In this document: positions 16,941 to 50,639 of the stretch, piece by piece
How positions within the stretch are numbered: position 1 is the stretch's first letter
Layout: the number at the start of each line of letters is the position of its first letter
Source of the DNA: Thermoflexus hugenholtzii JAD2
GTDB lineage: Bacteria > Chloroflexota > Dehalococcoidia > UBA2979
NCBI GenBank assembly: GCA_945903275.1
Contig: CAMDNW010000009.1
Location: forward strand, 3,036 to 67,035
DNA: 64,000 nt
Direction of reading: 5' to 3'
Position numbers and translations under genes: made by a program
The notes under the pieces: generated by a model
Database searches by the model: none
What the model was told of the DNA's origin: nothing
What the model saw: only the letters and a program-made list of their open reading frames with translations

Positions 16941-17521
16941 CTACCTCCGTCGCAGCACGCCAACAGCATCCAGAATCTCGCACAATACCGCTGCCGAGGT
17001 AAACCGCACGTCCTCCATACCCGTTGCGCGCGCCGCATCGGCGTTCGCCGGTGTGTCATCAATGAACAACACTTGCTTCGCTGAGACATCGAGGCGATCC
17101 AGCGCTATCTCGAACGCCTCCGCTGACGGCTTCAGTGCCCCAAGCTGGAACGAGAACAGCAGCGGCGGATTATCCGTGAGCACCGCAACCCGCACACGCG
17201 GCTCGATCGCGTGCACGACCGTAATCGTGTCGTCGTCCACCGTCAGCGCCGAAAGCATCACTGACTCGAACGCATCGAAGTCCAGCGCGACGCCAAGCCG
17301 CTCGTTCACAGTCTGCCGCCATTCGCTCGTGTACCGCCCCAGGTCGAAATCGCGCGTTAGCCCGGACTCCCACACCCGTGCCTGCACCTCGAGCTCCGGC
17401 AACCCGCTTCATCGCACAAGCGTCGCCAGCCGCGGCCCCGGCCCCGGCCCCGGCCCCGGCTCGAACCGGCACACCACGCCACCAAGGTCGAAGAGCACTA
17501 CCGAGACCATCCTGACCATTC
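16941..17521 (-). pseudogene. HAD-family hydrolase with an in-frame TGA and an internal (GGCCCC)n microsatellite
   Basis: MVRMVSVVLFDLGGVVCRFEP (HAD motif I), then GPGPGPGP encoded by the repeat, then RLATLVR, then TGA at 17409..17411, then SGLPELEV...FIDDTPANADAA (motif IV) in the same frame. The stop sits at a likely Trp position. Confidence 0.55.
17434..17460. repeat. (GGCCCC)4.5 hexanucleotide microsatellite inside the HAD pseudogene
   Basis: Direct tandem repeat visible in the sequence. Confidence 0.9.
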
Positions 17522-20278: not shown

Positions 20279-20281
20279 CCG

Positions 20282-21457
20282 ATGCGCATCCTCCACACCG
20301 CCGACTGGCACATTGGCCGCACCATCCGGGGCCGCAGCCGCGCCGCCGAGTTCGAGGCCGTCCTCGCCGAACTCGTTGGCATCGCGCGCGCCGAGCAAGT
20401 CGAGGCAATGCTCGTCTGCGGCGACATCTGGGAGACCGCCACCCCCACCCCCGAGGCCGACCGCCTGGTCTTCGAGGCGCTCCGTGAGTGCATCGGCCTT
20501 GGCATCCAGGTCGTGCTCATCGCCGGCAACCACGACTCGCCGCGCAAACTCGAGGCGCTCGGCATGTTGTCCGAACTGCTCGGCGTGCAGACTCAGTGGC
20601 GCGTGAACCGTCCCGAGGCTGGCGGCATCCTGAACATCGAGGGCCGCGAGCATGTCGCGCGCATCGCCGCCGTCCCGTGGCTGCGCGAGGGCGACTTCGT
20701 CGATGCCGCGCAACTCATGGGCCTCGAAGAAGACCGCTACGTCGCGTACGCCGACGGCGCGGGTGAGATCCATCGCGCCATGTGCACACCGTTCACGCCA
20801 GACACTGTGAACATCCTCGCCGGACACGTCTTCCTCAATGGTGCGCGCTACGCCGCGCGCGACGGCTCCGAGCGGCAACTGCATATCGGTCAGGCCTACG
20901 GTATCGCGCCCGCCGCCCTCCCACCGGCGCCGCAGTACATCGCGCTCGGCCACATCCACAGCCCGCAACGCATCACCGATGCCCCCGTCCCCACCGAGTA
21001 CGCCGGCTCCCTCCTCCAACTCGACTTCGGTGAGGCGCACGATGAGAAGCGCGTCGTGATCGTCGATGCTGTTCCCGGCCGCCCGCCGGACGTGCGCTCC
21101 ATCTCGCTCACTAAGGGCCGCCGCCTGCACCAACTGCACGACACGTTCGACAACGTGCTCGCGCAGGGTGCATCGCTTGGTAACGCGCACATTCGCGTCG
21201 TGCTGAAACTCGGCAAGCAGGAGCCCGGCATCGCGCAGCGCCTCCGCGATCAACTCCCCGGTGTCGTCGACGTGCAGCCTGAGTACCCCGATCTCATCGA
21301 GGCGATCGAGGAGCACCCATCGCTCGCCTCCCTCGCCCCCGAGGAGCAGTTCGTCCACTACTACCGAGCGCAGCACCAAGCCGACCCCGCACCCGAGACG
21401 ATCGTGCTCTTCCGCACCCTCCACGACGCCGCCGTCACCGCCGAGACGGAGGCGTAA
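20282..21457 (+). CDS. sbcD: Mre11/SbcD double-strand-break repair nuclease (calcineurin-like phosphoesterase)
   Basis: MRILHTADWHIGR..., phosphoesterase motifs (GDIWE, GNHD, GHxH). It starts 3 bp after the herA stop. Confidence 0.85.
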   Translation: MRILHTADWHIGRTIRGRSRAAEFEAVLAELVGIARAEQVEAMLVCGDIWETATPTPEADRLVFEALRECIGLGIQVVLIAGNHDSPRKLEALGMLSELLGVQTQWRVNRPEAGGILNIEGREHVARIAAVPWLREGDFVDAAQLMGLEEDRYVAYADGAGEIHRAMCTPFTPDTVNILAGHVFLNGARYAARDGSERQLHIGQAYGIAPAALPPAPQYIALGHIHSPQRITDAPVPTEYAGSLLQLDFGEAHDEKRVVIVDAVPGRPPDVRSISLTKGRRLHQLHDTFDNVLAQGASLGNAHIRVVLKLGKQEPGIAQRLRDQLPGVVDVQPEYPDLIEAIEEHPSLASLAPEEQFVHYYRAQHQADPAPETIVLFRTLHDAAVTAETEA

Positions 21458-21458
21458 C

Positions 21459-24400: not shown

Positions 24401-24473
24401 CGCCATCGCCGACCGCCTCCCCGACCGCATCGAGGTCATCAAGAACGGCGCAACGAGCACGGTTAGGAGTTAA
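21459..24473 (+). CDS. sbcC: Rad50/SbcC SMC-like ATPase with a zinc hook
   Basis: GTG start 1 bp after the sbcD stop. Walker A GPTGSGKSSLLDAI, a long Ala/Glu/Arg-rich coiled coil, a CPVCGEP zinc hook mid-protein, and C-terminal LSGGETFLASLALAL...LFLDEGFGTLD (signature motif and Walker B). Confidence 0.85.
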   Translation: MRPIRLELRGFTSFRDTSVVDFTGRRLVAITGPTGSGKSSLLDAITWALYGEVPRVGNRAAQLMTHGAVSMSAQFDFSVGPQRYRVSRSIGRKSEARLDRLSPDGFTVVPLADRAREATAEVTRVLGLDYETFTKTVLLPQGAFDAFLRGDPGQRRDILTNLLALGIYERMRADAHARSVGARAAAEMQHEQAGRLTLATPEAVTILEADRAQFETRLREVAVQRTNLATLTEAERAAADRARIAADAAQAARVAAEAFAHTEAAAAQAVTAAEAAAQHLAALTSERAALGYDAEEHRRLEQQVALVQQRAAARDDLSRAQQAVTIAQDAADRARGDAARAAATAETQRVSSESATTALAAARTRLAAVAAPARTAAAALAGQIATTEAARAQSLQRSNEYEQKARVLQTLAKQLIGLRVEHERADSTRTAALAAAATAEAHRVRAHDAETAAAAALTEATAHREAAQREHAAAALRRGLKVGEPCPVCGEPITSLADRAAPDLDATDAALAAAQRALDAARAGQQQRASAAAAAHAHAEAAGAALTAVDTKIIVLDAQCAEAAVTRDGIDHAAKRASTAAAAEGQRATAAEEQIAAARTLERDLQLLLVQVPADIETIEADPPSGALTAALRVALDAHAEGGGAARIAETATRTADEAARTTTTAATHSDALTAQATRAAVEAQSRLDALGAQDAAEADALLASLAAMTQRAQRATALDEAARAAGQQQAFATALTEERRAAVARATAAATTATANHGSTEAEAARARDAYREHWRAFGLAEPPSADDLTATAGKLEADERDTDRSLTRTIGAIELAHKERAESERLRAEAAANTRNAEVAAGLEQELHRNRFVAYVQREAMHVLATEAGERMEHLSRGRYRLAADGDEFVIVDRFNGDEQRSVKTLSGGETFLASLALALALAERLPQLSGHGGALSLESLFLDEGFGTLDADALDVAIEALELLSSGDRMIGVISHVPAIADRLPDRIEVIKNGATSTVRS

Positions 24474-24479
24474 CCGTGA

Positions 24480-25140
24480 CGATGCTCGCCGCAGGTTCGA
24501 TTCACGTGACCATCGGCAGAAGCTCAGATTGGGTTGGATTGGTCTGCTGATCACGCAGATCGCCACAGTTGTGGCAGCAGTGCTCGCGTACCGACCAGTT
24601 CAACGCCAAATCAGTCAGAGAGCCGAACAACACGGGGAAACTCTGGCAGCGACATATCGCCCGGTGGTCGTACTGCGTAACCCCACAGTGAAACAAGTGC
24701 AGACCGGTGAACACTACCGTGAGGCAACATCTGGGAATCCAGGCACAGGGCCTGCGCTAAACGTTAAAATCCACGCGTGGCTAAGGAACGCATCAACTCA
24801 AGGCCTGACCAAGCAAGCCTTTCGGGCAGAGATTGATGCATCCAGGGCGGCCGTTGATTGGTGACGCCCATTCTTCGTTCACCGCATCGATGTAGTCGGC
24901 GCAGGCGACACAATCACGCAACCGATGACGATCGAGTCTTCTCTCGTGGGCGAATCCCCTAACGCCGATTGAATTCTCTACATCGCTTTCTTTGAGGATC
25001 TCGGGAAAACCCACTTCCCTCGTCAGCCACAAGACGAATAAAAGTGCGGTCATTTACTCCTGCGAACATATACGACCAGCCCTAAAGCGAATGAAGACAC
25101 CGCGCTTGTTCTTCGCGGACATTCTCCGGCACGCATGATC
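24480..25140. other. Low-GC (~50%) insert downstream of rad50 with two overlapping small ORFs (24529..24864 + and 24793..25053 -)
   Basis: An abrupt compositional drop relative to flanking ~70% GC DNA. The + ORF starts with a TM-like segment (MGWIGLLITQIATVVAAVLAY). Neither ORF is recognisable. Confidence 0.3.
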
Positions 25141-25720
25141 ACTTACGCCGCGCCACGCATTCCCATACCTGCTTCGGTCGCGCCCACCGCGTGACCTCCC
25201 GGTGTTCGAGGTTCACCAGCGCAAACCCGTCACGCAGCACCTCGCGCACCGCCGCCTCATCGAAGAACCGCTTCGTCGCCCCATACGGCGCTTCCACTTC
25301 GGACTTCCGGAAGTTGCGCTCGATCTCGATACCGCCCTACGCGCCGTACTCCACGTCATCCGTCGCGTTCACGCGGAACACGAGGACGCCGCGCGGCTTC
25401 GGCACGCGAGCGATCTCGCAGATCATTGATGCGGTAGTCGCGTGCGAAAAGTAGTAGAGCGACAACGACGCCACGACTCCATCGAAGACAGCATCGGCGA
25501 AGGGAAGCGGGCAACTGTGGTCGGCGTAGATCAGCGAGCGGGTGCCGAGCCGGACGCGTGCATCCGCCACTTCGGCCGTCGCAGGCAGATCGGTCGCCAC
25601 CACATCGAGTCCCCATGCGCGCAGCGCCTCGGCATCCTCGCCCGGCCCGCATCCGAGTTCCAACACTCGCCCCACGCCTTCGAGTGATGCGCGATGCCGT
25701 TCGAGCCAGCCGTCGCTCAT
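25054..25720 (-). pseudogene. Class I SAM-dependent methyltransferase interrupted by an in-frame TAG
   Basis: ...LELGCGPGEDAEAL...VLVFRVNATDDVEYGA, then TAG at 25337..25339, then GGIEIERNFRK...FALVNLEHREV in the same frame. Confidence 0.5.
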
Positions 25721-28254: not shown

Positions 28255-29139
28255 ATGACCCAACCCCCCCACGAGCCACCGGTCACATCGCCCGAACCGG
28301 ACGACGAGGTCGCCGCGCTCCTCGCCGAGGCGCGCGCGCGCGCGCGGGCTCTCATCGACGACTCGATCCTGCAGGCTGAGCAACTCCTACAGCGCCAGTC
28401 CAACGGCCAGATGCTCGAACGCATCCGCCGCTCCGTCACTGACCTGGTCGCCGATGTCCGCTCCGTCCATTCCCGCCTCGACGACATCGAGGCACTCCTC
28501 CGCCGCCCAGCCCCGGCCGCCTACACGGCAGCACCGGTCGCTGCCGCTGCGCCCACGCCCACGCCCACGCCCACGCCCACGCCCACGCCCACGATGCAAC
28601 CGCCCCAGTCAGCGATCCTGCCCACCGCCCCCACACCTCCCGTCCCTCCGGTGGTACCGACGCCGACCGGGCCCCCCACACCGGCCACTTCGCCGGTCGC
28701 GGCTGCGCCGGGCACCGAGCCAGTACCAATACCACCAGTACCCGAGACACCCATAGCAGCCGCACCGCCACAGCCTGCGCCCGTCGCGGCAGCACCGCCT
28801 CCACCTGCGGCACCGCCTGCCGCCGCTGCCGCCGCGAACGGCAGCGCTCCATCCGGCCCCGGCTTCGACCCTGAAGGCGGCTCAGTCGCCCTCCGCGTCG
28901 CACTCGTCGCCGACTTTCAGGGCTTGATGCGGCTTCAGGACGCCCTCGTCCGCATCAACGGCATCCGCGCGGCCGGCATCGAGGCCTACGCGCAGGGCGA
29001 GGCGCGTCTCCGCCTCCAACTCGCCGAACACATCGAGCCGGAAGCGGTCGCTGCCGCCCTCAGCAACCTACTCGGCCGTCCCACAAAAGTCGCTTCGGCA
29101 TCCATGTCTGAGCGTATTCTTCACCTGACACTCGATTGA
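28255..29139 (+). CDS. Proline/threonine-rich protein with an N-terminal coiled coil and a C-terminal ~90-aa globular domain, translationally coupled to the sensor kinase
   Basis: 294 aa with a long PT/PA-rich linker including (PT)7. The stop overlaps the kinase start (ATGA). The C-terminal domain (SVALRVALVADFQGLMRLQDALVRINGIRAAGIEAY...) is unassigned. Confidence 0.6.
   Translation: MTQPPHEPPVTSPEPDDEVAALLAEARARARALIDDSILQAEQLLQRQSNGQMLERIRRSVTDLVADVRSVHSRLDDIEALLRRPAPAAYTAAPVAAAAPTPTPTPTPTPTPTMQPPQSAILPTAPTPPVPPVVPTPTGPPTPATSPVAAAPGTEPVPIPPVPETPIAAAPPQPAPVAAAPPPPAAPPAAAAAANGSAPSGPGFDPEGGSVALRVALVADFQGLMRLQDALVRINGIRAAGIEAYAQGEARLRLQLAEHIEPEAVAAALSNLLGRPTKVASASMSERILHLTLD
28551..28592. repeat. 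(GCCCAC)7 hexanucleotide microsatellite encoding (PT)7
   Basis: Perfect tandem repeat inside CDS 28255..29139. Confidence 0.9.
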
Positions 29140-30722
29140 TCCGTCCCCTCCGTCGCTCCCACAGTGGAGGGCCTGCGGCAGCCGCACTGTCGGCACAAGG
29201 GGGACTCAATATCGAAACGGCGCTCCTCACTGTCCCCGCCCGACAGCGTCTGCGTCAGGTGCACCGGCGCGGCCTCCGGTTGCTCGCCGTCGCAGTGCTC
29301 GCCGTCGCCGCGCTGCTGGCCGCGCATCTCTTCGCCGCCGTCGCCTTCATCGAGGCCAATGTCGAAGGCTTCCGCTTCTGGCTCGCCGCCGCCGATGCCG
29401 CCCTCGCCGGCCTGCTCATCCTCACACTCGCCTGGCACCTCCACCGCCTCACGCGCGAGCGCCAGCGCCACGCCTTCGTCGAGATCCTCGTCGAGACGCT
29501 CTCCGTCCCCGCCAGCATAGAGGGGACCGCCGAGGCCACCCTCGAACTCGTCATCGGCGCGGGCCTCGCGCGCGGTGGCATCGTCGCCGCCGTCAGCGGT
29601 GATGACGAGGCTGCGACGCGCCTTGTCCCCCTCGCCGTCGCCGGTGCCCGCCGCGGCTGGGCCAGCGAGGCCGGCCTCTCCGACCGTCTCGCAAACGTGG
29701 TGAGCGTCGGGCGCGAGCACACCATCGACGACCCGTGGCTGCTCGGCATGGAACTCACCATCGGCCGCCGCCCGTGGGTCGCCCGAATCCCCATCCTGCG
29801 CGGCGATGAGCGCCTTGGCCAGCTGCTGCTCGCCAGCCGCCACCGTGGCTGGCTCGGCGACCGCGCCCTGCTGCACACCATGGGCGCCATTCTCGCCGCC
29901 GCCCTCGACCACGCCCGCCAGTACCAGGTCGCCTACGAGCGCTCCCGTGACCTCGAGGAGCAGAACGCCCGCCGCCGTGAGTTCCTGTACGCCATCGCCC
30001 ACGAACTGCGCGCACCGCTCACCTCCATCCAGGCCTTCGCCAAACTGCTCGGCACCGACCAGCAACTCATGAACGGCAACAAGGAACTCCTGCTCGGCTC
30101 ACTCGCCCGCGGCGTTGACCGCCTCGCCACCTTCGTCAACGACCTCCTCGCCCTCGGCCGCATCGAGGAAGCCGGCCTCCGTGTCGAGATGCAGACGTTC
30201 GATGTCGCCGAGGCGCTTCGCGACGCGGAGACCATCCTTCGCCCCGCCTTCATGGCCCGCGACCAGTCGCTCGTCCTCGATCTTCCCGATGCACCGCTCG
30301 AAGCCTTCGGCGACGGCCGCGCCCTCGAACAGATCGTGCTCAACCTGCTCTCCAACGCCAACCGCTTCAGCCCCACCAACGGCGCCATCGTCCTCCGCGC
30401 CCACGCCGTCGATGCGCGCATCCGCATCGAGGTGCAGGACTCCGGCCCCGGCATCGACCTGCTCGATCGCCAGCGCATCTTTGAGCCGTTCTACCGTGTC
30501 CACCGCAACGGCGCACCCGAGGTGCCCGGCTCCGGCCTCGGCCTCGCCGTCGCCCGCCGCCTCACCGATATGCAGGGCGGCCACCTCTGGGTGGAGGCTG
30601 TCCCCGGCGGCACCGGCTCCCGCTTCTGCGTCGAACTACGCCTCCCCGAGGCGCCCGCTCCAGGCGGCGCTCCAGCCGCTGAGGTTGATGATGCCAAGGA
30701 GCCCAGCGCGCCGGCTGGCTGA
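29136..30722 (+). CDS. Sensor histidine kinase with two TM segments, GAF, HisKA and HATPase_c domains
   Basis: H-box FLYAIAHELRAPLTSI, N box LLSNANRFSP, G boxes DSGPGID and GSGLGLAV. Confidence 0.85.
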   Translation: MIRPLRRSHSGGPAAAALSAQGGLNIETALLTVPARQRLRQVHRRGLRLLAVAVLAVAALLAAHLFAAVAFIEANVEGFRFWLAAADAALAGLLILTLAWHLHRLTRERQRHAFVEILVETLSVPASIEGTAEATLELVIGAGLARGGIVAAVSGDDEAATRLVPLAVAGARRGWASEAGLSDRLANVVSVGREHTIDDPWLLGMELTIGRRPWVARIPILRGDERLGQLLLASRHRGWLGDRALLHTMGAILAAALDHARQYQVAYERSRDLEEQNARRREFLYAIAHELRAPLTSIQAFAKLLGTDQQLMNGNKELLLGSLARGVDRLATFVNDLLALGRIEEAGLRVEMQTFDVAEALRDAETILRPAFMARDQSLVLDLPDAPLEAFGDGRALEQIVLNLLSNANRFSPTNGAIVLRAHAVDARIRIEVQDSGPGIDLLDRQRIFEPFYRVHRNGAPEVPGSGLGLAVARRLTDMQGGHLWVEAVPGGTGSRFCVELRLPEAPAPGGAPAAEVDDAKEPSAPAG

Positions 30723-30739: not shown

Positions 30740-31918
30740 GTGCATATCACGCACCTCTCACTCGCCGGCGCGCGCTCGTTCCGCCGTCTGGAACTCCCGC
30801 TGACACCAGGGTTGCACGTCGTCACCGGCCAGAATGGCAGCGGCAAGTCCAACCTGCTGGAAGGCATCGCCCTCCTCGCCACCACGCGCAGCCTCCGCAT
30901 TGCCAACGACCTCGAGCTGATCGCATGGGACGCCCTCCGCGACGACCCGCTCCCCGCTGCCCGCTACGCCGCCCGCGTCCACACCGCAGTCGACGACAAC
31001 ATCACCATCGAGGTCATCGTGAGCGCCCGCCCCGCCACCCCTGGCATCGAGGCCAACGCCGCCTCTCGCCGCTTCCGCGTAAACGGCGTCGCCCGCCGCG
31101 CCTCCGATCTCATCGGCCGCCTGCGTGTCGTGCTGTTCAGCGCCGACGATCTCGGCATCATCGACGGCGCCCCTACCGCCCGCCGCCGCTACCTCGATAT
31201 CACCCTCTCCCAACTTGACCCCGCATACGTCCGCGCCCTCCAGCGCTACCAGCGCGTCCTCCAGCAGCGCAACAGCCTGCTCCGCCGCCTGCAAGAACGC
31301 CGAGGCCAACCAGGCGAACTCGATTTCTGGGACGAGGAACTCGCGCAGACCGGCGCGATGCTCATCACCAGCCGTGCGCACGCGATCGCCACACTCAACA
31401 CTGACGCCGCCCAGCGCTACGCCGCGCTTTCCACCGGCAGCGCCCCGCTCGAGGTCTGCTACCGCCCCGCACTCCCCCCTCCGCTCATCGAAACAGTCGC
31501 TTCCTCCACCACCAGCCTCGCCCCGAAACTGCTCGAAGCCCTAGTGGTTGGCCGCACCCGCGACATCCAGGCCGGCACCACCCGCATCGGCCCGCATCGC
31601 GACGACGTCGCCTTTCTCATCGGCGGTCACCCCGCTGGCTCCACTGCCTCCCGAGGCGAACTGCGCGGCATCGCCCTCGCCCTCCGCCTCGCCGAGGTCG
31701 CCTTCTCCACCGCCCGCACCGGCGACCCGCCCGTCCTCCTCCTCGACGACGTGCTCTCTGAACTCGACGCCGGCCGCCGTGCCCGCGTCCTCGCCGCCGC
31801 CTTCGAGGTCGATCAGGTCATCATCACCTCGCCCGACCCAGACCGCCCTGCCCCCGCCGAACTCTCCGCCGCCAGCCGCTACCGCATCGACGCCGGCGTA
31901 CTGGAACCAATCGGCTAA
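30740..31918 (+). CDS. recF: DNA replication and repair protein RecF
   Basis: MHITHLSLAGARSFRRLELPLTPGLHVVTGQNGSGKSNLLEGI (Walker A), ...GDPPVLLLDDVLSELD (Walker B). Confidence 0.85.
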   Translation: MHITHLSLAGARSFRRLELPLTPGLHVVTGQNGSGKSNLLEGIALLATTRSLRIANDLELIAWDALRDDPLPAARYAARVHTAVDDNITIEVIVSARPATPGIEANAASRRFRVNGVARRASDLIGRLRVVLFSADDLGIIDGAPTARRRYLDITLSQLDPAYVRALQRYQRVLQQRNSLLRRLQERRGQPGELDFWDEELAQTGAMLITSRAHAIATLNTDAAQRYAALSTGSAPLEVCYRPALPPPLIETVASSTTSLAPKLLEALVVGRTRDIQAGTTRIGPHRDDVAFLIGGHPAGSTASRGELRGIALALRLAEVAFSTARTGDPPVLLLDDVLSELDAGRRARVLAAAFEVDQVIITSPDPDRPAPAELSAASRYRIDAGVLEPIG

Positions 31919-31952
31919 CCCCGCGAGAACAGCACGTTCGGCTGCGGCGCAA

Positions 31953-32869
31953 TCAGAGCCGTGAGCGCCCCCGGCTCCACCCACATCGAGACTCGTGTGG
32001 TGCCGATATATTCGCCGTCCGTCTGCACAGGCAGCGGCCACTCCGTCGCGATCTCGATCCGCGCCCCTCTCCCTGTCGGTAGTCGATCCCATCCCCCGCG
32101 AACGTACACAGGTCGAGCACGCCGTCGTCCGCCCGCGCTGCCGCCGTGAGCCGCGTCATCCCGCCGTACAAACGCGTGTTCCCCGTCACCGCCATCAGCA
32201 GCGGCCCGTCTAGCACCGTCCCATCGACGCTTACCGTCGCGCCCGCTGGCTCGGACCGACCGAACACATACGCCCCGATCCCCGCATACCACCCGCGCCC
32301 AAACGACCGCTTTCCCACCGCGGGAATCTGCTCCACCCGCCGCACTATCTCGGCGTCCATCCCCACGTTGCACATCAACAGGAATCGCCGCTCCGCGCCC
32401 GAAGCCACCCGTACCCGCCCCACATCCACCCGCACCCGCCGCGGTGTCGTCAGCGCGCGCACCGCGTCGCTTAGGTCGCGCGGGATCAGCACCTCGCGCG
32501 CCCACACATCCGCCGTCCCCGCTGGCAACACCCCGAGCGCCGTCCGCGTCCCCGTCAGCCCTTCGACAACTCCGAGACCGTGCCGTCATGGCCACACGCC
32601 GCCACCACATCCACGCCAGCCGCTGCGGCGCGTCGCGCGATCTCCGTCGCGTGTCCCGGCGCGCGCGTCTTCTGAATATCGACGCTCCACCACGTCGTCA
32701 CCAATGTGTCCACTGTCTCGCGCAGCAGCACGTCTTCCGGGGGCGCACGCCGCTTATACGGATTCCGCACCACCATCGTGCGCGGCGCAATGTTCATCCA
32801 TGTGTCAGCAATCAGTGCGCCGCTGTACCGCGCCTCAGCCCCATGCGCGATCGGCCATCCGCAAGTCAC
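31953..32869 (-). pseudogene. Diacylglycerol/lipid kinase (YegS/DagK family), frameshifted
   Basis: The N-terminal part ...VDVVAACGHDGTVSE (the GGDGT motif) ends at 32555. The C-terminal part VVEGLTGTRTALGVLPAGTADVW...FLLMCNVGMDAEIV is in a different frame. A single-nucleotide deletion lies near 32545. Confidence 0.6.
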
Positions 32870-40467: not shown

Positions 40468-41247
40468 TCACGCTTCCAGCAGCACCGCGCGCAGCCGCTC
40501 GTGCAGCGCGGCCGTCGAGGCTAGCATCGACCCCGGCCGCGCCGCGCCCCCTCGATCGCCGAGGTCACTCCGCCCGCCCCGCGCACGATCAAGTCGTCCG
40601 CGCTCATGTCCCACGCCTGCAACCCGTGCTCGTAGTACGCGTCCAGTCGGCCGCACGCCACCCAGCACAGGTCCAACGCCAGCGCCCCGCCCCGCCCCGC
40701 CCCGCACCCGCACCCGCACCCGAGGCAGCACGCGCGCCACCATAATCCCCTGCGCGGCCCGCCGCTCCGCGTCGTACCCGAACCCCTTTCCCACCAACGC
40801 CGTCGCGAGCACAACGAGGCCCGACGTCGCAATCGGCTCGTCATTCAATCGCGCGCCGCCACCGATGCGTGCGCTGAACATCTCGTCGTATACCGCCTCC
40901 ACCTCCGTCTCCTCTGCGACATCGACGCCAATCGAGACCACGAACGCCCGGTGTCGGTACAGGTAGTTCGTCGTCCCATCCAGCGGGTCGACCACCCACC
41001 GCACGCCCGACACGCCCTCCGCTTCCGCGGTCAGTCCTTTTTCGCCGAGGATCGCGTCATCCAGCCGCACCGCACGAATCCGTTCCGCGGCGCGGTCGGC
41101 GGCGCTCACCATGTCCGTGCGGCTGCTCTTCGTCGCCACATCGCTCCGCACGATTGACCGCACACACAGCAGCAACACCACCGCCTCGCAGGCCGTCACC
41201 ATCGAGAGCGTCAGCAGCGCCTCCGGATCAACTGACGCGGCGGTCAT
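40468..41247 (-). pseudogene. Inositol monophosphatase family (SuhB/ImpA-like) gene disrupted at an internal GC-rich microsatellite
   Basis: The N-terminal frame has ...WVVDPLDGTTNYLYRH... up to RVLPRVRVRVRGGAGRG. The C-terminal motifs ALDLCWVACGRLDAYYEHGLQAWDMSA...IVRGAGG are in another frame (ORF 40521..40844). The junction coincides with (CCCCG)4(CACCCG)3. Confidence 0.6.
40684..40722. repeat. Compound (GCCCC)4-(GCACCC)3 microsatellite
   Basis: Direct repeats visible at the frameshift point of the IMPase gene. Confidence 0.9.
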
Positions 41248-42389: not shown

Positions 42390-42465
42390 GCGCCGGTAGC
42401 TCAGGGGATAGAGCATCAGTCTTCGGAACTGAGGGTCGGGGGTTCGAATCCCTCCCGGCGCACCA
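42390..42465 (+). tRNA. tRNA-Arg (anticodon TCG) with encoded CCA
   Basis: Cloverleaf folded by hand: acceptor GCGCCGG/CCGGCGC, D arm GCTC...GAGC, anticodon stem TCAGT/ACTGA with loop CTTCGGA, T arm GGGGG-TTCGAAT-CCCTC. Confidence 0.8.
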
Positions 42466-42659
42466 ACAATTCAGCCACTTCGGACTTGGGTGACTAAGTA
42501 CCCGGGACGCCAATGGCCCTAACTTGGCCCTAATTCTCTCAGCTTGAGACGATGGCCAGCAGCGCATCGTGGCAACAATAGGTCCGAACGCACATCGGCA
42601 TCACTGTTCAGAAACGACGAAATCGTAACGGTACCGTTCCGGGTGGCAGCGTCCCTGGC

Positions 42660-43070
42660 GTGACTGTCGGTCGAGCTGGCGGACGAGGGGCCACATCTGT
42701 GGATCTTCGACGACTAGCAGGTGTGGGGCACGCACTCGCTAGTACGCCTGGCATGGGATCACTCGTCGCGTGGTACGGCGCAGGCCTGACGATTAACAAT
42801 ACCCAGTTCTCGATCGAAGCCGATGCTGCGCGAATTGCAAAACCGGTACTCATTCTCCACGGAGACCTTGACCAGCCTGGACTGACGTCATTCGCGCGTA
42901 AATTCGCAAGCGCTCGCAAGTCCGCAGGGAAGCAAGTAGAGCTCGTGATCTATCCCGGAGTTGGGCACGCCTGGGATCAGCCTCGCTCTCCGATCTACGT
43001 TTACGACGCGAATGCGACTGCCGATGCTCGATCACGAACGATTGCATTTTTTACTGCAGCTGCCCGATGA
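42660..43070 (+). pseudogene. Dienelactone-hydrolase-family alpha/beta hydrolase, C-terminal fragment only
   Basis: ...PVLILHGDLDQPG...VELVIYPGVGHAWDQ...ADARSRTIAFF corresponds to the C-terminal third of DLH. The N-terminal catalytic half is absent. It sits at the tRNA-proximal edge of the low-GC island. Confidence 0.45.
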
Positions 43071-43765
43071 AGTAGACGAGGTTCCGTCAGAACTCAGTGC
43101 TCGCCGCCGAGTTCGGCCAGGAACGAGAGGAGAAGCAGCCCCGTTTCGAATCTGAGACCAAGTGCCGGGAAGACCAGATCAGGCGCCTTCTAGGCCCTGG
43201 CCACTGAGTTCTGACAGAACTCATCCATTAGCGACCAGTCTGGCCGAACCTACGTCCGGAAGCGGACCGCCATCGAAGCAGTTGAGGCAAGTCACTTGGG
43301 AGAAGTCGCCAGTCAGGTTCCGGCGGCTTCTAGTCATGCACGGCGAGACCCCGCCGCCATCGCGATGGAGCTTGTCGACTCCCTGCTCGCCTTTCGGTTC
43401 CGGAGCAGGCAACCCTGTGAGAACAGACACTTCTCTACGGCTGGCCTGCCGGACATGCGAACAGTATGAGCGGGCGTCAAAGCCCGGACAGTCACATATG
43501 CCCTTCAGCGAACGGTCGGTTCGTAGCATCAACTCAACCGCGTGGGGCCGCGATGTATGACTCATGGAAGGAATTACGACGACTTTCTCCCACGTCGTGA
43601 TCAGCGGGGTAGGCCTGACAGTCGATGGGATACCCAGCATTGCCTCAAAGAAGCGCTTGAACAAATCCATCTCCTTCGGTGTGTCGAAACACCGACGCGT
43701 GGAATGCCGCGGAACCACTAGGGGTAGTGGTTCCGCGGCGGCGGCAATGACGAGTGACCGAGTAG

Positions 43766-46309
43766 CTAACTGACGATAGGTGCAGTCTCGTCCGCCCACA
43801 CAATGCCGGTTTCCCGAAACAACCGGATGGACGGCGCATCGTAGCTGAGCTCTTCCAGAATCGCGTCGGTCTGCTCGCCTGCCACCACGCCCGGACCGTA
43901 CCGGCCTGGAGTCTCGGAGAACGTAACGAGGGGGCCCCAGCGCTGGTAATCACCGAGTATTCGATGCTTCGCGCGGATCGCGAACGCGTTCTCCTTGATC
44001 TGCTCGGAGCGCCAGAAAAACTGTCCTGCACTCTGGAAATCGTCTGCCCGGACGCAGCCGACTCCTGCCTCCAGCAACGCGTGCTCCCATTCATCCGCAC
44101 TACGCTGTGCGAAGACCGGCGTGAGGAACGTCACAAGATCCTGTGCGTGGCTCGCGCGGCTTTCTCGATCCTTGAACCGACTGTCATTGCGCAGGTCATC
44201 CCGTTGGAGCGCAGAGCACAGGCACGCCCACATGTCGTCCGACTCCGCGCTGAGGCATACCCAACTGTCCTTCGCTCGATACAGCCGCTGCAGCGGTCCG
44301 ATTCCCATGAGGGATGAATCGAGCGTCGGACGTGCTGGCTTCCCGGCATAGGAGAGGAAATCGTCCGCGTTTGCGTACGCGTTCGCCCCAAGCATACTCA
44401 CGAACACTTCCTGCCCTGCACCGGTTCGCCGTCGGGCGTGGAGCGCCAGCATCGCCGCTGTTGCGACGACAACTGACGTGTTGGGGTCGGGGTTTGACTC
44501 GTTCGCGCGGTAGAACCGTCGCGCAGCCTCCCGCAACGCATTGATCGATGATAGATCACCTTGAGGCCAGCCTTCACCGACCTGCATCAGCGCGCCACCG
44601 TCAACTGCCCCAGGGATGGGATGCGCTGCAGGACGAGGAGCACCCTCGCCGTCAGGCCCGTAGCCGCTCACGCTCAGCCAGATGATGTCCGGACGGATCG
44701 CCTTCGCCTGCTCATACCCGATCCCCAATCGTTCGGGCACACCTGGCCGGTAGTTGTGGACGATCATGTCGGCCTGCACGACGAGGCGGCGCACGATCTC
44801 CTGACCAGCCTCGGTCTTCAGATCGATGCAGATGCTTTCTTTGCTTGCTGTCGTCTTCGAGGAGCCAAGGTATGCCGTTAAGCCCGCACCGCCCATGCCC
44901 CGCATCGGGTCGCCACCATTCGTTGGCTCGACCTTGATGACCCGAGCGCCGAGGTCTCCAAGCAGCGAGGCTCCGAGCGGAGCGGCGATGATCGTTGCAA
45001 ACTCGAGCACGGTCAGCCCAGCAAGTGGGGCGGCCCGATCGCCGGTCACCGTTCGTGTCGGCTGAGGAGCCGGGGGCTCGCCAAGCACCTCGGCGGTGTG
45101 CTCTCCTACGCGCGGTGCTGGCCGGCCGATTCGCGCCGGAGTATCGCGCAGAAGCGCGAGGGGGCCGAGCTGACGGACCACTCCTAGATCTGGGTCGGCC
45201 GCCTCAATGACTTCGCCGTTCGCCACCATGTCCGCGTGGTGTAGCCCGGTCTGTGCGGTGCCAACAAGGTCCGCCGCGACGTTGCCGCTGGCCTTGAACT
45301 CGTCCATCAGTTCGTCAGCCGTACACTCTTGTGCCGCGAGCAGCATCGCGTTCCGAATTTCCTCGCGTGCTTCCTCGGAGACGCCATTGGGCGCTCCCGC
45401 GTAGCGAGGATCAGCGAGGATTTTGTCGGCGAGGCCCAACGACACGATCGATGCCTGAAAGAGGTGCTCCAGTAGGTTGGCGAGCTGAATCCAGCGGCCA
45501 TCGGACGACATGATCGGCTGGTACCCGAGCGTGGGCTGCGCATCCGGGGAGTAGTACCGCGCAAACAGTTCGCTCTGTGCCTTCTCAGGGAAGCGCTCAA
45601 GCATCTGCTCGCGAACAAGGTTGTTGAGGTCATACGGGAACATTCCCTGCAGCAGGCTCGTCTCAACAAGTTGCCCGAACCCGCTGCGCTCGCGAACCTC
45701 GAGTGCGGCCAGAATCCCTGTCGTCGCCGACTGTGCTGCGGCGTGCGTCCCGACCTGCACCGCCTCGAAGCCGGGGCCTTCGCGCCGGTCGATGAACGCC
45801 ATCGCCCACATTCTGGCTGACTTCGCGGCGACGAGCGTTTCGTCCGCCGGGTACTGCGCATACGGCCCACGCGGACCCCAGCCAGTGACTGAACAATAAA
45901 CGAGCCCTGGATTCGCGCCCTTCAGACTCTCGTAATCGAGTCCAAATTCCTGCGCTTCGCCCGGACGGAAGGACGCCACCACGACATCCGCCGACAGCGC
46001 GAGCTGTCTCGCCGCGTTCTTACCCTCGGTGGCGCTGAGATCGAGTACGACGCTCCGTTTGCCTCGAAGCCACATTGGCGCGGCCGCATGCGCGCGAATC
46101 GGGTCGCCGCCCGGGCCCTCGATCTTGACGACATCGGCTCCGAAGTCGGCCAACACCATCGTCGCGATCTCTGCTGCACCGCCCGATCCGATCTGGATAA
46201 TTCGCAGGTCGTCGCATGGCCCAGTCAATCGGGTTGCCCTTTCTCTATTCGCCAGATGAAAGCTGGCGGAGTCAGCGGGACCCACGAAGACGCGGGTCGA
46301 GCACATCAC
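43766..46309 (-). CDS. Fused tandem family-III CoA-transferase (two CaiB/BaiF domains in one 847-aa polypeptide)
   Basis: Two repeats of the GPxxGxRVLDL...ADxGAxVIKVE N-terminal signature (LRIIQIGSGGAAEIATMVLADFGADVVKIE and LTVLEFATIIAAPLGASLLGDLGARVIKVE). Confidence 0.8.
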   Translation of the reverse strand: MMCSTRVFVGPADSASFHLANRERATRLTGPCDDLRIIQIGSGGAAEIATMVLADFGADVVKIEGPGGDPIRAHAAAPMWLRGKRSVVLDLSATEGKNAARQLALSADVVVASFRPGEAQEFGLDYESLKGANPGLVYCSVTGWGPRGPYAQYPADETLVAAKSARMWAMAFIDRREGPGFEAVQVGTHAAAQSATTGILAALEVRERSGFGQLVETSLLQGMFPYDLNNLVREQMLERFPEKAQSELFARYYSPDAQPTLGYQPIMSSDGRWIQLANLLEHLFQASIVSLGLADKILADPRYAGAPNGVSEEAREEIRNAMLLAAQECTADELMDEFKASGNVAADLVGTAQTGLHHADMVANGEVIEAADPDLGVVRQLGPLALLRDTPARIGRPAPRVGEHTAEVLGEPPAPQPTRTVTGDRAAPLAGLTVLEFATIIAAPLGASLLGDLGARVIKVEPTNGGDPMRGMGGAGLTAYLGSSKTTASKESICIDLKTEAGQEIVRRLVVQADMIVHNYRPGVPERLGIGYEQAKAIRPDIIWLSVSGYGPDGEGAPRPAAHPIPGAVDGGALMQVGEGWPQGDLSSINALREAARRFYRANESNPDPNTSVVVATAAMLALHARRRTGAGQEVFVSMLGANAYANADDFLSYAGKPARPTLDSSLMGIGPLQRLYRAKDSWVCLSAESDDMWACLCSALQRDDLRNDSRFKDRESRASHAQDLVTFLTPVFAQRSADEWEHALLEAGVGCVRADDFQSAGQFFWRSEQIKENAFAIRAKHRILGDYQRWGPLVTFSETPGRYGPGVVAGEQTDAILEELSYDAPSIRLFRETGIVWADETAPIVS

Positions 46310-47210
46310 GGATCGTATCCCCGAGCATATTGAACGACAGCACCGTCACGCTGATCGCGAGTCCGGGCAGGATAGCGAGCCACGGTGCCGACTCCATGTA
46401 CTGCCGCCCGGAGGTGGAGAGCATCAGCCCCCATGATGGGTTGGGAGGCTGAGTCCCCAGTCCCAGAAAGCTGAGGCCGGACTCTGCAAGGATGGCCCCC
46501 CCGAGCGAACCGGAAGCAAGAATGAGGATCGGAGCGACAATATTCGGCAGGACGTGACGCGCCATGATGCGGCGCGGGGTCGCCCCGAGCGCGTGGGCCG
46601 CCTCGACGTAGACGTTCGCCTTCACCGCCAGCACCGCGCTTCTCACAACGCGCGACGACGAAGGAATCGTAACGATCGCGATGGCGAGCAGTGCGTTCGC
46701 GGTGTTCGCCCCGAGGACAGATACGATTGCCATCGCAAGCACAATGGCAGGAATAGCCAGCATGCCGTCGACCGCCCGCTGTACGATCAAGTCGAACGTT
46801 CCGCCGAGGAACCCACTCACGAGCCCGAGCACGGTGCCGCTGACCGTCCCGAGCCCCACTGCGATCAGTCCGACGTACAAGGAGATGCGCGCACCCCAAA
46901 TGATCCGGGATAGCTGATCACGACCGATGTTGTCCGTGCCGAAGGGATACTTCCAACTCGGGCTGAGCAGCTTCTCGCGCGACGTGGCGATGGGGTCATA
47001 TGGCGCGATGATTGGTGCGAACACCGCGAGCAGCACCACGATAAGGATCACCGTTCCGAAGATGGCACCGACGGGATGCGTGACCACTCGGCGCAGGGCG
47101 TCCAGAGTGGGTGGAAGCGACCTGCGCGCTGCGATGCGCGCAGTGGCACTCGTGGCAGACACTGTACTTGCGGTACCTGCGCCGTCTCCGCCGCGAACCA
47201 TGTTCGCCAA
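46272..47210 (-). CDS. ABC transporter permease (DppC/OppC-like)
   Basis: 6 TM helices and an EAA-like loop. Confidence 0.85.
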   Translation of the reverse strand: MANMVRGGDGAGTASTVSATSATARIAARRSLPPTLDALRRVVTHPVGAIFGTVILIVVLLAVFAPIIAPYDPIATSREKLLSPSWKYPFGTDNIGRDQLSRIIWGARISLYVGLIAVGLGTVSGTVLGLVSGFLGGTFDLIVQRAVDGMLAIPAIVLAMAIVSVLGANTANALLAIAIVTIPSSSRVVRSAVLAVKANVYVEAAHALGATPRRIMARHVLPNIVAPILILASGSLGGAILAESGLSFLGLGTQPPNPSWGLMLSTSGRQYMESAPWLAILPGLAISVTVLSFNMLGDTIRDVLDPRLRGSR

Positions 47211-47231
47211 ACTCTGGCCCCTTTCCTGCGC

Positions 47232-48182
47232 CTAGTGCAGCCGAATCCGAGGATCGAGAAGTCCGTATGACATGTCGATAGTCAGGTTCGCCAGCACGAA
47301 CAGCGTTGCCATGACCATCACTGAGCCCTGCACTACCGGGTAGTCCCGGTGGGTGACGGCATCAAGGAGCAGCCGCCCCTGTCCGGGCAGCGAGAAGATC
47401 TGCTCGACAATGACCAACCCACCGATGAGCCCGGTGAGTTGTGCGCCGATGATCGTGATCACCGGGATCATGCTGTTCCGCAGCGCGTGGCGGATGACGA
47501 CGTCTATCTCACGCAGGCCTTTTGCGCGAGCCGTACGGACGTAGTCCTCCCTCAACACGTCGAGCATGGCGGACCGGGTCATGCGCGCGCTCACGGCGGA
47601 CAGGCGGTAACCAACTATCAACGCCGGGAAGATCATCGACTGGAAGTTCTTGACCGGATCAGTAAGCGGCGAATACCAGCCAAACTCCGGCAACCATCCG
47701 AGATATTTTGACAGAACCAGTAGCAGGATAGTGGCTAGCCAGAAGTCGGGCGCGGAGAGCCCGATGACCGAGAACAGGCGGCTGCCGAAATCGATCACCG
47801 TATCCTGACGCACAGCAGCGATGACTCCGAGAGGAATCGCTAGCATGAACGCGATCGACACTGCCAGTATGGAAATCTCAAGCGACACCTTCATCCGCTG
47901 CAGGATGGTCGGCAGGACGGGTTCGCGAGTCCATAGCGACGTGCCGAGGTCACCCTGGACTAGGTGCCCAAGCCAATCCGCGTATTGCGCGAGAAACGGC
48001 TTGTCGATGCCGAGTTCGATACGCATTTGGGCAAGTGTCTCCGGGCTGACGTAGCCGCCCTCTGCGACGAGCGCCATCACAGCATCCCCGGGGATGAGCC
48101 GGACTAACGAAAAGATGAACAGCGAGACAAACAGGAGTGACGGGACCGCGAGCAGCAGTCGCCGAGCGATATAAGGACCCAC
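47232..48182 (-). CDS. ABC transporter permease (DppB/OppB-like)
   Basis: MGPYIARRLLLAVPSLLFVSLFIFSLVRLIPGD... is a classic DppB start. Confidence 0.85.
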   Translation of the reverse strand: MGPYIARRLLLAVPSLLFVSLFIFSLVRLIPGDAVMALVAEGGYVSPETLAQMRIELGIDKPFLAQYADWLGHLVQGDLGTSLWTREPVLPTILQRMKVSLEISILAVSIAFMLAIPLGVIAAVRQDTVIDFGSRLFSVIGLSAPDFWLATILLLVLSKYLGWLPEFGWYSPLTDPVKNFQSMIFPALIVGYRLSAVSARMTRSAMLDVLREDYVRTARAKGLREIDVVIRHALRNSMIPVITIIGAQLTGLIGGLVIVEQIFSLPGQGRLLLDAVTHRDYPVVQGSVMVMATLFVLANLTIDMSYGLLDPRIRLH

Positions 48183-48256
48183 CGGTCCCCCTTCCGCTGC
48201 TCAAGCACAGGACAGGAGGCAGCGGATCAGCCGCTATCTCCTGTCCTGTGCCCGTA

Positions 48257-50023
48257 TTACTTGCTTGTCCAAATGTCTGGCATGAACTGCGAGGCGTTGT
48301 ATCCGAACACGCTTGGGCCAAGTCCGTCATTGCCGACGATCCACTGCATCCCGTGAATCCACGGCTGCCAGACCGTGAAGTTTACGGAGTTCGTGTGCTC
48401 CACGCGGTACATCTTGTCGAGCATACGATCCCAGATCTTACGCAGAATTTCGCGCCGTTTCCGCGGATCGAGCTCGACGCTCTGCTGCTCCGACCAAGTG
48501 TCGATCTCGGGGTCCTTGATATAGAAGAGATTGCTCGCAGCGCCTGACTGCAGCTGCGCCTTGAAGTAGTTGTCTGCCTGTGTGCCGTGGGGATCCCACG
48601 CCTGAATGGCATCTTCGTACTGAGCTTTCGCCAACTGGGCGTTGAACTGCACGTAGTCGATCTGACGTGCATTGACTTGGAATCCCGCCTTGCGGAATTG
48701 ATCAAGGATCATCTCGTTCTGAGCGGTCAAGTACTGGTTTGTATACAACCAGTCGAATTTCAGGTTCTCCTGCCCGGCTGCCTGCAGTAGTTTCTTGGAT
48801 TCGGCGAGGTCAAACCGCCACCACTTACCGAGATCCTTGGCAACCGGCTCCTTGTCGAGCACGTGGTTCCACGGCATCACCGGCAGTGTGCTCGATAGCC
48901 CGTCGTACAGAGTGGCGTTGATGGTGTCGCGGTCGAGCGCGAGGCTGAAAGCCTGACGGACGCGCTCGTCCTTCCACTTGGCCTGAGTCATGTTGAACGC
49001 GGTGAAGAACACCGACTTGGTATACAGGGACTGCGTAACGTTGGAACCAGGCACCGACTCCTGAATTGCCTTGATGTCTTTCGGCGTGCGTGCGCCCGCC
49101 CGTATGATTTGGCCTGCGCGGAACGCGGCAACCTGCGCAGCAGTGTCGGGAATGATGCGGTACTCGAAGCCGTCAAGATGCGGAGCAGGCCCCCAGTAGT
49201 CGGGGTTTCGCACATAGCGGACCGCTTGTCCAGCCACATGCTCTTTCAGGATCATCGGCCCCGTGCCGATCGCAACTTTATCGAGCGTTTTGTTGTCGAC
49301 CAGTTCTTTCGGCTGAATTGGATTGTTCTGCTCAGCCAGCGGCACAATGAAGTCCGGTGACGGTCGCTTCAGCGTTACCTTGACCGTCAAAGGGTTCACT
49401 GCTTCGATCTTGGCCATCGCATCGAAATTGGATTGCCAGATGCCGGTGGACGCGTACCGCTGGTACGAGTACACGACGTCCTCCGCGGTGAACGCGCGGC
49501 CGTTCAGCGGGGCCACGTTGATCCATTTGGCATTCGGCCGCAGTTTGAAGGTGTACGTCAGACCGTCTGGTGTGACCTCCCATGACTGTGCCAAGCCCAC
49601 TTCGATATCCTTCGAGGGCGCTCCTGGCGTGCCTCCGAGCTCACTGTCCTTTGTCGTCATTTTTCGACGCAGCAGTGTCTCGTAGGTGGTACCGGCTGGC
49701 GTCAGATTGCCGGTCGCGCCGCTCTTGCTCACATCCATTGATCCGATGTCAGCGGCCACGGCGACCACCACGGACCCGCCTCGCTTCGGCTGGGCACTGG
49801 ACGCGGCAACCGTATAATTGAACGGGCGCTTCGCCGCTTCCTCTTTGGTAGCTGCCTGCCCTCCACCCGTGTCAGCTGTTGCCCCCGGTGCTGCGGAGGG
49901 GGCACCCTTCGTCCCGCCGCATCCTACGAGAGCCGCCGCGCTCATGCCGCCGACGAACGCGAGTGACCCTCGCACCAAACTCCGACGACTCACAGACTGC
50001 GATATCAACCGATGGTTCGCCAT
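48257..50023 (-). CDS. ABC transporter substrate-binding lipoprotein, family 5 (peptide/nickel/opine type), Tat signal
   Basis: SRRSLVRGSLAFVGGMSAAALVGCGG (twin-arginine signal plus lipobox), 588 aa, SBP_bac_5-like. Confidence 0.85.
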   Translation of the reverse strand: MANHRLISQSVSRRSLVRGSLAFVGGMSAAALVGCGGTKGAPSAAPGATADTGGGQAATKEEAAKRPFNYTVAASSAQPKRGGSVVVAVAADIGSMDVSKSGATGNLTPAGTTYETLLRRKMTTKDSELGGTPGAPSKDIEVGLAQSWEVTPDGLTYTFKLRPNAKWINVAPLNGRAFTAEDVVYSYQRYASTGIWQSNFDAMAKIEAVNPLTVKVTLKRPSPDFIVPLAEQNNPIQPKELVDNKTLDKVAIGTGPMILKEHVAGQAVRYVRNPDYWGPAPHLDGFEYRIIPDTAAQVAAFRAGQIIRAGARTPKDIKAIQESVPGSNVTQSLYTKSVFFTAFNMTQAKWKDERVRQAFSLALDRDTINATLYDGLSSTLPVMPWNHVLDKEPVAKDLGKWWRFDLAESKKLLQAAGQENLKFDWLYTNQYLTAQNEMILDQFRKAGFQVNARQIDYVQFNAQLAKAQYEDAIQAWDPHGTQADNYFKAQLQSGAASNLFYIKDPEIDTWSEQQSVELDPRKRREILRKIWDRMLDKMYRVEHTNSVNFTVWQPWIHGMQWIVGNDGLGPSVFGYNASQFMPDIWTSK

Positions 50024-50639
50024 ATGCTCATGCCTCCCTTGGGCTTAGGAACGACCCCAACTGCTGTCTCTCGCGATGGAGTTCGTACAGATTGATTTGC
50101 CTGCGAGACCCACTCTCTTCAGAACGACCTTCCCGCAGTTCATTCCGTTTATTTCGGTGCGATGGCTACCAATCGAGCCTTACAGCACCGGACTGCCAAA
50201 ATTGACGCGAAACCAAACTTTCGATTTCGAACCCTTCGACACTGCTAGGCAACAGCGTCGACATCAACGCCTATTGCATGCACGGCACTGCGTTGAAAAC
50301 CTATGCACGTGGCGGATATTACGTGCGTAGGCTTCACGATTGCAACTGCCTATAAGTCTGCCAAAATTAAAATCTTTGCCGCGTTTCTCGCACAGAACGT
50401 GATTGGGATCGGTGGACGGGTGCATGGCACACCGAGTGGCATCACGAATCGCCGTGTCCGACAATCCTAATGAGCGGAAGTGCCTGATCCGGCTCCTCGC
50501 AGGAGAACTCTTCCTCGCACATGTTCTCGTGCGCCTACGAGCGCTACCAATTCTGGCAGGAACAAGCCCGACTCCGGGGCTCATCGACTGAGTAGCGTTC
50601 CATCAACAGAACGTCATCCGCCCCGCCGGTATTCGCCGC

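Follow-up and report, generated by a model that had tools for sequence, protein, structure and literature searches.

We analysed a stretch of DNA of 64,000 nucleotides (the window; G+C 66.7%) and focus here on an open reading frame of 259 amino acids at 40468..41247 on the minus strand. This frame is the middle member of a gene string coding for a TPR-like protein, an inositol monophosphatase (IMPase, PF00459) and a GNAT acetyltransferase, and its native stop codon lies 12 nt ahead of the ATG of the downstream GNAT gene. The TPR-like open reading frame has 180 amino acids and a GTG start; gene callers place the start elsewhere. When searched against Pfam (family cut-off 27), the Inositol_P profile is split between two frames of the minus strand exactly at a GC-only microsatellite, and both parts are above the cut-off. 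Residues 22-182 of the 259 amino acid frame align with profile positions 16-190 at 71.6 bits, and positions 193-241 match in the other frame, within the open reading frame 40521..40844 (minus strand), with 43.9 bits. The original prediction, that the N- and C-terminal motifs of the IMPase lie in different frames on either side of the repeat, is borne out by this split. The repeat itself, predicted as (GCCCC)4(GCACCC)3 at about 40684-40722, is also present and occupies 40684-40721. The plus strand has four GCCCC units (40684-40703) followed by three GCACCC units (40704-40721), and on the coding minus strand the array reads (GGGTGC)3(GGGGC)4.

Three-frame translation revealed a second frameshift 150 nt downstream of the repeat, at a run of five G residues (C5 on the plus strand, 40547-40551). 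Here the C-terminal helix typical of the family (GSMLASTAALHERLRAVLLEA, followed by the stop codon) regains frame A after the sequence "...GGVTSAIEG" in frame B. The IMPase domain is without a single uninterrupted frame: it runs in frame A, then in frame B, and its tail is again in frame A, while the homologues are single open reading frames of ~260-275 amino acids. Since the microsatellite adds one base (modulo 3) and one base is lost 150 nt downstream, the 259 amino acid frame stays open up to the native stop. Its middle part of about 50 residues (residues ~184-233), where the WD metal-ligand motif belongs, is out-of-frame junk. The features of the locus are as follows, in the order in which the gene is read.

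40722..41247, minus strand: N-terminal two thirds of the gene in the original frame A, with GEK (E to K) and an intact DPLDGT
41089..41090, minus strand: junction of a 15-nt in-frame deletion; the residues aligned with RLIVE of intact homologues are gone
40704..40721, minus strand: hexanucleotide array (GGGTGC)3, encoding RVRVRVR; two-unit alleles in L033 and L034
40684..40703, minus strand: pentanucleotide array (GGGGC)4, the first frameshift; three-unit alleles in L013, L014, L017 and L019
40552..40685, minus strand: middle segment, IMPase sequence ALALDLCWVACGRLDAYYEHGLQAWDMSADDLIVRGAGGVTSAIE including the WD motif, readable only in frame B
40547..40551, minus strand: G5 homopolymer, the second frameshift, one nucleotide shorter than the inferred G6; G4 in the sister lineage
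40468..40546, minus strand: C-terminal ~26 codons in frame A, ending in GSMLASTAALHERLRAVLLEA and TGA

The conceptually repaired protein matches thousands of proteins of the IMPase family. Its residues 37-234 align with the SuhB proteins of M. tuberculosis (2Q74) and E. coli (6IB7/2QFL) with E = 1e-33 to 1e-30. The closest intact homologues are 61-65% identical, have 270-275 amino acids and are each encoded by one open reading frame. A scan of the contigs of GTDB-representative genomes with the repaired protein returned only distant IMPases (42-46% identity; Demequina, Mycobacterium). Two intact homologues, with IMPases of 270-272 amino acids, are found in a gene string TPR-IMPase-(GNAT-Pterin4a)-Aminotran_3 that matches the one of the window, and we therefore consider them to be positional orthologues.

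L035, P0005: TPR-like gene overlapping the start of the IMPase gene, then the aminotransferase
P0004 contig: TPR, IMPase, GNAT, pterin-4a dehydratase, aminotransferase

L035 is the only intact orthologue that was read as DNA. At the site of the array it has CGC GTG CGC GAC ATT CGC CGG CGC GGC GCG GCG GCG CTC GAC, which is G/C-rich and without a microsatellite. Relative to L035, the sister lineage L013 is longer by 5 nt and the window by 10 nt; these lengths correspond exactly to one GGGGC unit and to two, respectively. At the second site the homologues have IEGG-x-A-x-PGSM; the length of the window gene would fit this sequence with G6, but the window has G5 and L013 has G4.

We then compared the locus among related strains. 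Contigs from many samples were retrieved by exact look-up of variants of the open reading frame and of the GNAT protein next to it. Three independent sources contributed, namely ENA (MEGAHIT assemblies), Logan (assemblies of single runs) and NCBI (two MAGs, GCA_947445005.1 and GCA_947484815.1). Among the runs with this organism are ERR4405442, ERR3719144, SRR12053438/9 and those behind ERZ27280287/310. All compared sequences are metagenome assemblies, so that each is a consensus in which heterogeneity within the population is not separated. Identity to the window is 99.6-100% for most of the related contigs and 98.0% for L013. The 13 DNA sequences fall into six alleles.

Allele A (L013): 15-nt segment present, GGGTGC-GGGACATCCGGC, three GGGGC units, G4
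Allele B (L032): 15-nt segment present, GGGTGC-GGGACATCCGGC, four GGGGC units, G4
Allele C (L019): 15-nt segment deleted, GGGTGC-GGGACATCCGGC, three GGGGC units, G5
Allele D (L014, L017): 15-nt segment deleted, (GGGTGC)3, three GGGGC units, G5
Allele E (window, L012/L016, L015, L018, L020, L021): 15-nt segment deleted, (GGGTGC)3, four GGGGC units, G5
Allele F (L033, L034): 15-nt segment deleted, (GGGTGC)2, four GGGGC units, G5

None of the six alleles is in frame, and the same holds for the further contigs; the members of the cluster at the protein level are consistent with the six alleles. Length polymorphism in the population, for which the original prediction had suggested to look, is thus present: GGGGC is found with three or four units, GGGTGC with one, two or three, and the G run as G4 or G5. 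A repeat number that is invariant, and orthologues that show the same frame arrangement as two separate genes, had been named as the outcome that would speak against the prediction. Instead the repeat number varies and each orthologue is one intact gene.

The alleles also tell how the tract changes. Two pairs, L013 versus L032 (alleles A and B) and L014 versus the window (alleles D and E), agree in their SNP haplotype across the gene and are one GGGGC unit apart. The change between three and four units has therefore occurred at least twice, or it was moved by recombination. Over 20.5 kb, L014 and the window (99.9% identical) differ by 9 SNPs and by a single indel, which is one GGGGC unit. The GGGGC tract is a genuine slippage hotspot, and slippage is real and recurrent. 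A rough estimate, based on about five events and a tree of ~0.03 substitutions per site, is that the tract would change at 100-1000 times the substitution rate per site. The hexanucleotide array (GGGTGC)3 stands where the ancestral GGGTGC-GGGACATCCGGC (encoding RVRDIRR) was located, and this ancestral form is kept in L013, L019 and L032. Alleles C and D are equal in total length and differ by a clustered replacement of 12 nt, GGGACATCCGGC to GGGTGCGGGTGC. To judge from the sequences, this replacement resembles a copy templated by the neighbouring hexamer more than it does point mutation.

G/C-rich repeats and homopolymers are error-prone in sequencing and assembly, and two contigs of our collection end within another repeat of the window (see below). 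It could therefore be argued that the indels in the repeat and in the homopolymer are erroneous and that the real gene is intact. The same alleles recur, however, over samples and assemblers: allele E comes from both NCBI MAGs, from ENA MEGAHIT contigs and also from one Logan assembly; two SRR runs and one ENA assembly gave allele F, and three contigs gave allele D. This recurrence makes an assembly artefact unlikely. Furthermore, the 15-nt deletion and the deletions and missense changes described below are not indel errors. Taken together we regard an artefact as extremely improbable.

The original prediction had offered two readings of the frameshift, namely inactivation of the gene by slipped-strand expansion or phase-variable expression by a change of the repeat length. 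The first one stands insofar as the length change has put the gene out of frame. For the second one, a reversible change of the GGGGC copy number would have to toggle the expression of the IMPase. The architecture is indeed suggestive, as the tract lies inside the open reading frame, the unit of 5 nt is not a multiple of three, each length change shifts the frame and recurrent length differences are seen among near-identical strains. An ON allele, however, is not among the six alleles of the 13 DNA sequences nor in the further contigs. Moreover, since the G run adds a second frameshift, the open reading frame cannot be regained by a change of the repeat number alone. We modelled every combination of 1-7 GGGGC units with G4-G7, and only two or five units together with G6 gave an open reading frame that holds the middle and the C-terminal IMPase segments. 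Contingency loci are typically surface or restriction-modification genes, whereas the IMPase is a cytoplasmic enzyme of the housekeeping type in a free-standing operon. The number of units is also low: PhasomeIt nominates phase-variable genes with pentanucleotide repeats from at least five units on (PMC6321876), and the alleles have three or four. Together with the neutral substitution pattern and the loss of conserved residues (see below), a phase-variable contingency locus is in our view very unlikely.

The two shifts cancel each other in the commonest allele, and homopolymer and repeat tracts can promote slippage of the polymerase or the ribosome. The full-length enzyme could hence be imagined to be made by recoding, either through transcriptional slippage or through programmed shifts of the ribosome by +1 at the repeat and by -1 at the G run. 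Yet the shift needed is not the same in the different alleles (+5/-2, +10/-2, +5/-1 and +10/-1 nt), and the orthologues need none. A conserved recoding signal is therefore not maintained. In the three-unit alleles a stop codon is met before the second site, catalytically conserved residues are degraded, and the Rfam scan of 38-43 kb gave tRNA-Arg only, with no Rfam element in the region of the gene. The probability that recoding rescues the enzyme appears to us close to nil.

The damage to the gene goes beyond the two frameshifts. The direct repeats CGCGGA(G/A)CGG flank the 15-nt deletion, and the segment is retained in the lineage L013/L032, where it encodes LIAER. Compared to eleven intact homologues, the window gene lacks four residues (D-PSxx-E), a deletion common to both lineages, and has two additional residues after GEK. 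Near-invariant residues are changed as well, namely GEE to GEK, GTGF to GKGF, RD to RV, WDMAAG to WDMSAD and REAGG to RGAGG. The set of conserved motifs (GEE, DPxDGT, WDxAAG) is not kept: DPLDGT is intact, GEE is lost and WDMSAD can be read only out of frame.

Substitutions between the window and the L013 lineages, counted in the ancestral frames, yield pN/pS = 1.18 for the IMPase gene (13 nonsynonymous and 4 synonymous changes) as compared to 0.20 for the four flanking genes pooled (11 nonsynonymous and 19 synonymous changes). The difference is significant in Fisher's test both for the ratio of nonsynonymous to synonymous changes (p = 0.015) and for the nonsynonymous changes per site (p = 3e-4), with only 17 substitutions in total in the IMPase gene. 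The gene evolves without constraint; the counts are small but their direction is clear.

The locus thus has what marks a unitary pseudogene, that is, an intact orthologue in the same context, multiple disabling lesions and relaxed selection. We conclude that the IMPase locus is very probably a unitary pseudogene. As every observed state is out of frame, the differences in repeat length are in all likelihood neutral drift of a moderately hypermutable tract and not a switch. Some residual or new function of the 259 amino acid product may nevertheless exist.

In alleles E and F the frame runs up to the native stop. Allele E, the commonest one, is longer by 9 nt net. All three-unit alleles stop at 212-217 amino acids, ~150 nt before the native stop. 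One could suppose that the frame is kept open so that ribosomes reach the native stop near the GNAT gene (translational coupling or avoidance of polarity) and that the repeat length in this way modulates GNAT. That the commonest alleles finish at the native stop could then reflect selection rather than chance. Against this supposition, net in-frame compensation is expected by chance in about one of three cases, and both the three-unit alleles and the early-terminating allele with four units and G4 persist in several samples. We hold this explanation to be distinctly improbable. A selected compensated frameshift was also considered, as +10/-1 and +5/-2 are both net in-frame; it was rejected as a general rule, three units with G5 giving +4 and four units with G4 giving +8.

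The IMPase array is not the only one of its kind. It had been predicted that three GC-rich simple sequence repeats (SSRs) lie within coding regions of the window, and all three are real. The other two are located as follows.

17433..17460, minus strand: (GGGGCC)4.7, on the plus strand (CGGCCC)4.7, in a putative HAD hydrolase pseudogene
28550..28593, plus strand: (CGCCCA)7.3, encoding (PT)7 in the proline-rich linker of the open reading frame 28255..29139 (294 amino acids, no Pfam match)

In the HAD gene (16941-17519, minus strand) the repeat is an in-frame insertion of 18 nt (6 amino acids, GPGPGP) just past the DxG motif-I region. It encodes PGPGPGPGP, compared to PGP in the intact homologues (68-77% identical, ~203 amino acids). 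The unit GGGGCC is also the unit of the human C9orf72 repeat. Nine codons beyond the repeat there is an in-frame TGA (17409-17411), and 19 amino acids are deleted relative to the intact homologues of ~203 amino acids. On account of the TGA and the deletion we regard the HAD gene as a pseudogene as well. Lineage L036, which is 98% identical, shares the TGA, and its array is one unit shorter and interrupted. The (PT)7 repeat has four units in L027, and the Logan contigs L025 and L026 terminate inside the array. All three SSRs vary in length between strains, and the sole non-triplet array sits in a pseudogene, as would be predicted from the selection against frameshifts.

GC-only microsatellites of this type had been called uncommon in coding DNA. 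Chance does not account for arrays of such length. Counting perfect arrays that have units of 4-6 nt and a length of 20 nt or more, we find four in the window (two abutting in the IMPase gene, one at 17433-17460 and one at 28550-28593), compared to 0-0.02 in sequences simulated from its Markov statistics (order 1, 3 or 5; 60 sequences each). The longest array has 44 nt, and 21 nt is the longest in the simulated sequences.

The arrays also stand out as potential G-quadruplexes. A regular expression scan finds 15 canonical G-quadruplex motifs in the window, exclusively on the minus strand, and the three SSRs are the only motifs with loops of 1-3 nt. Each SSR is predicted by ViennaRNA with G-quadruplex energies to fold into a quadruplex on the G-rich strand. 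It is conceivable that the quadruplexes promote slippage. The GC skew, (G-C)/(G+C), is uniform and unusually strong with about -0.18; in bins of 4 kb it ranges from -0.03 to -0.25, whatever the orientation of the genes.

We suggest that the IMPase gene could have decayed in the following steps. Initially purifying selection would have been lost, and the G/C-rich stretch, which reads CGC GAC ATT CGC CGG CGC GGC GCG GCG GCG in intact relatives, would have started to slip. The GGGGC array could then have grown from a length equivalent to two units to three and further to four units. Subsequently the adjacent GGGTGC array might have arisen by the templated replacement of 12 nt, and it would have shifted between two and three units. 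The G6 run 150 nt downstream would have shrunk to G5 and to G4, and 15 nt would have been lost between the direct repeats. All these events could be due to slippage of replication at tandem repeats or to template switching there, and the formation of a G-quadruplex on the G-rich strand may aid slippage. The expansion of the repeat could postdate the death of the gene rather than being the first inactivating hit. Every other indel between the strains is also located within tandem or direct repeats, and the HAD gene shows a parallel pattern with its SSR insertion, in-frame TGA and deletion of 19 amino acids.

A more far-reaching proposal is that G-quadruplex-forming GC-only microsatellites are lineage-specific indel hotspots which drive the inactivation of genes, and that the repeat length tunes the expression of the GNAT acetyltransferase. 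If this were true, the repeats would toggle the end of translation of a dead open reading frame between the native stop, 12 nt before GNAT, and a position ~150 nt earlier. We consider this proposal improbable and retain the interpretation of a neutrally drifting pseudogene.

Several further observations concern the organism and the surroundings of the locus. GroEL points to an uncultured member of the Chloroflexota: its best named hits are from Chloroflexota or Dehalococcoidia with about 71% identity, and the nearest hit without a name has 76%. Within roughly 40 kb at least three genes are broken, those for the IMPase, the HAD hydrolase and a YegS/DAGK-like kinase, and the genome may thus have a notable pseudogene load. 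The YegS/DAGK-like lipid kinase (31915-32869, minus strand) extends over three frames, which implies at least two frameshifts. Its first part matches DAGK_cat positions 3-72 in the open reading frame 32555-32869; its second part matches DAGK_cat 86-125 and YegS_C 5-87 in the open reading frame 31953-32531, and YegS_C 118-156 is found in the third frame. In all related contigs the kinase is split alike, with calls of 80 and 224 amino acids. Strain L027 has an in-frame indel of 15 nt between direct repeats (TGCTCGCCGTCGC) at 29281-29295 in a HisKA/HATPase_c kinase, which has 482 versus 487 amino acids.

At 17608-24473 on the plus strand there are genes for NurA, a protein of 572 amino acids without a Pfam match, an Mre11-like protein (Metallophos) and a Rad50-like protein (SMC_N, 1004 amino acids); this cluster is an archaeal-type arrangement for DNA end resection. 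A class-I methyltransferase open reading frame has only 127 amino acids (25337-25720, within 24793-25720, minus strand). It is followed by a gap of ~280 nt and an open reading frame of 86 amino acids without a Pfam match, so this may be a truncated gene.

On the other side of the locus the tRNA-Arg is located at 42390-42465, and the ~1.3 kb downstream of it are without a convincing gene. The open reading frame 42660-43070 beside the tRNA-Arg looks by eye like the C-terminal fragment of an alpha/beta hydrolase of the dienelactone hydrolase type. The block up to 50400 contains peptide ABC transporter genes and a double-length CoA_transf_3 protein of 797-847 amino acids; its G+C is 0.62-0.63 and its skew is weaker (-0.03 to -0.13). 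In lineage L013 the synteny with the window stops just beyond the tRNA-Arg, and a DDE transposase is found there. Possibly 42470-50400 is a variable island adjacent to the tRNA.

The locus is a pitfall for annotation. In the output of gene callers the putative IMPase pseudogene passes for an ordinary "Inositol_P" protein of 259 (or 257, 246, 217 or 212) amino acids, since in DNA of high GC content the alternative frame is open. Filters for pseudogenes which are based on length miss the locus because the commonest allele has 259 amino acids and the native stop, with ~50 residues including the metal-ligand motif out of frame. The locus further provides a natural series in which a microsatellite appears to be born and to grow in a bacterial gene after the loss of selection, from none to three to four pentamers, together with a hexamer array that was apparently made by the templated 12-nt replacement. 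The tract varies enough to mark strains inside a population of 99.9% ANI. The locus does not open a new question on phase variation or on inositol metabolism.

With respect to the enzyme itself, the repaired window protein resembles the SuhB proteins of known structure (2Q74, 6IB7/2QFL) in having the DPxDGT and WD motifs too. The window gene, in contrast, cannot encode the SuhB fold in one frame, and near-invariant positions are substituted.

The disruption of the IMPase gene by slippage at an SSR is a fresh example of a known phenomenon. In Burkholderia mallei and B. pseudomallei, which are also GC-rich, SSR-mediated frameshifts disrupt genes in the course of genome erosion (PMC2877748). The likeness to our locus consists in the G/C-rich intragenic SSRs, their intrinsically high mutation rates and the frameshifted genes common to related strains (PMC2877748). 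The present case differs in that it stems from an uncultured member of the Chloroflexota, that the series of alleles records the birth and growth of the array in a decaying gene, and that the one intact orthologue read as DNA is without any repeat. In PMC3315296 and PMC6054270, SSRs are treated as indel hotspots in coding regions and pseudogenes as records of neutral mutational bias. The window agrees with this view as its non-triplet array is in a pseudogene and its triplet-compatible arrays are in a pseudogene and in a low-complexity linker; it is a single-locus illustration and not a genome-wide test. With the contingency loci of Haemophilus, Neisseria and Campylobacter (PMC2651432, PMC6321876) our locus shares the intragenic non-triplet unit, the slipped-strand change and the polymorphism between strains. 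It differs from them by having no ON state, only three to four units, a second fixed frameshift, neutral evolution and an atypical gene class.
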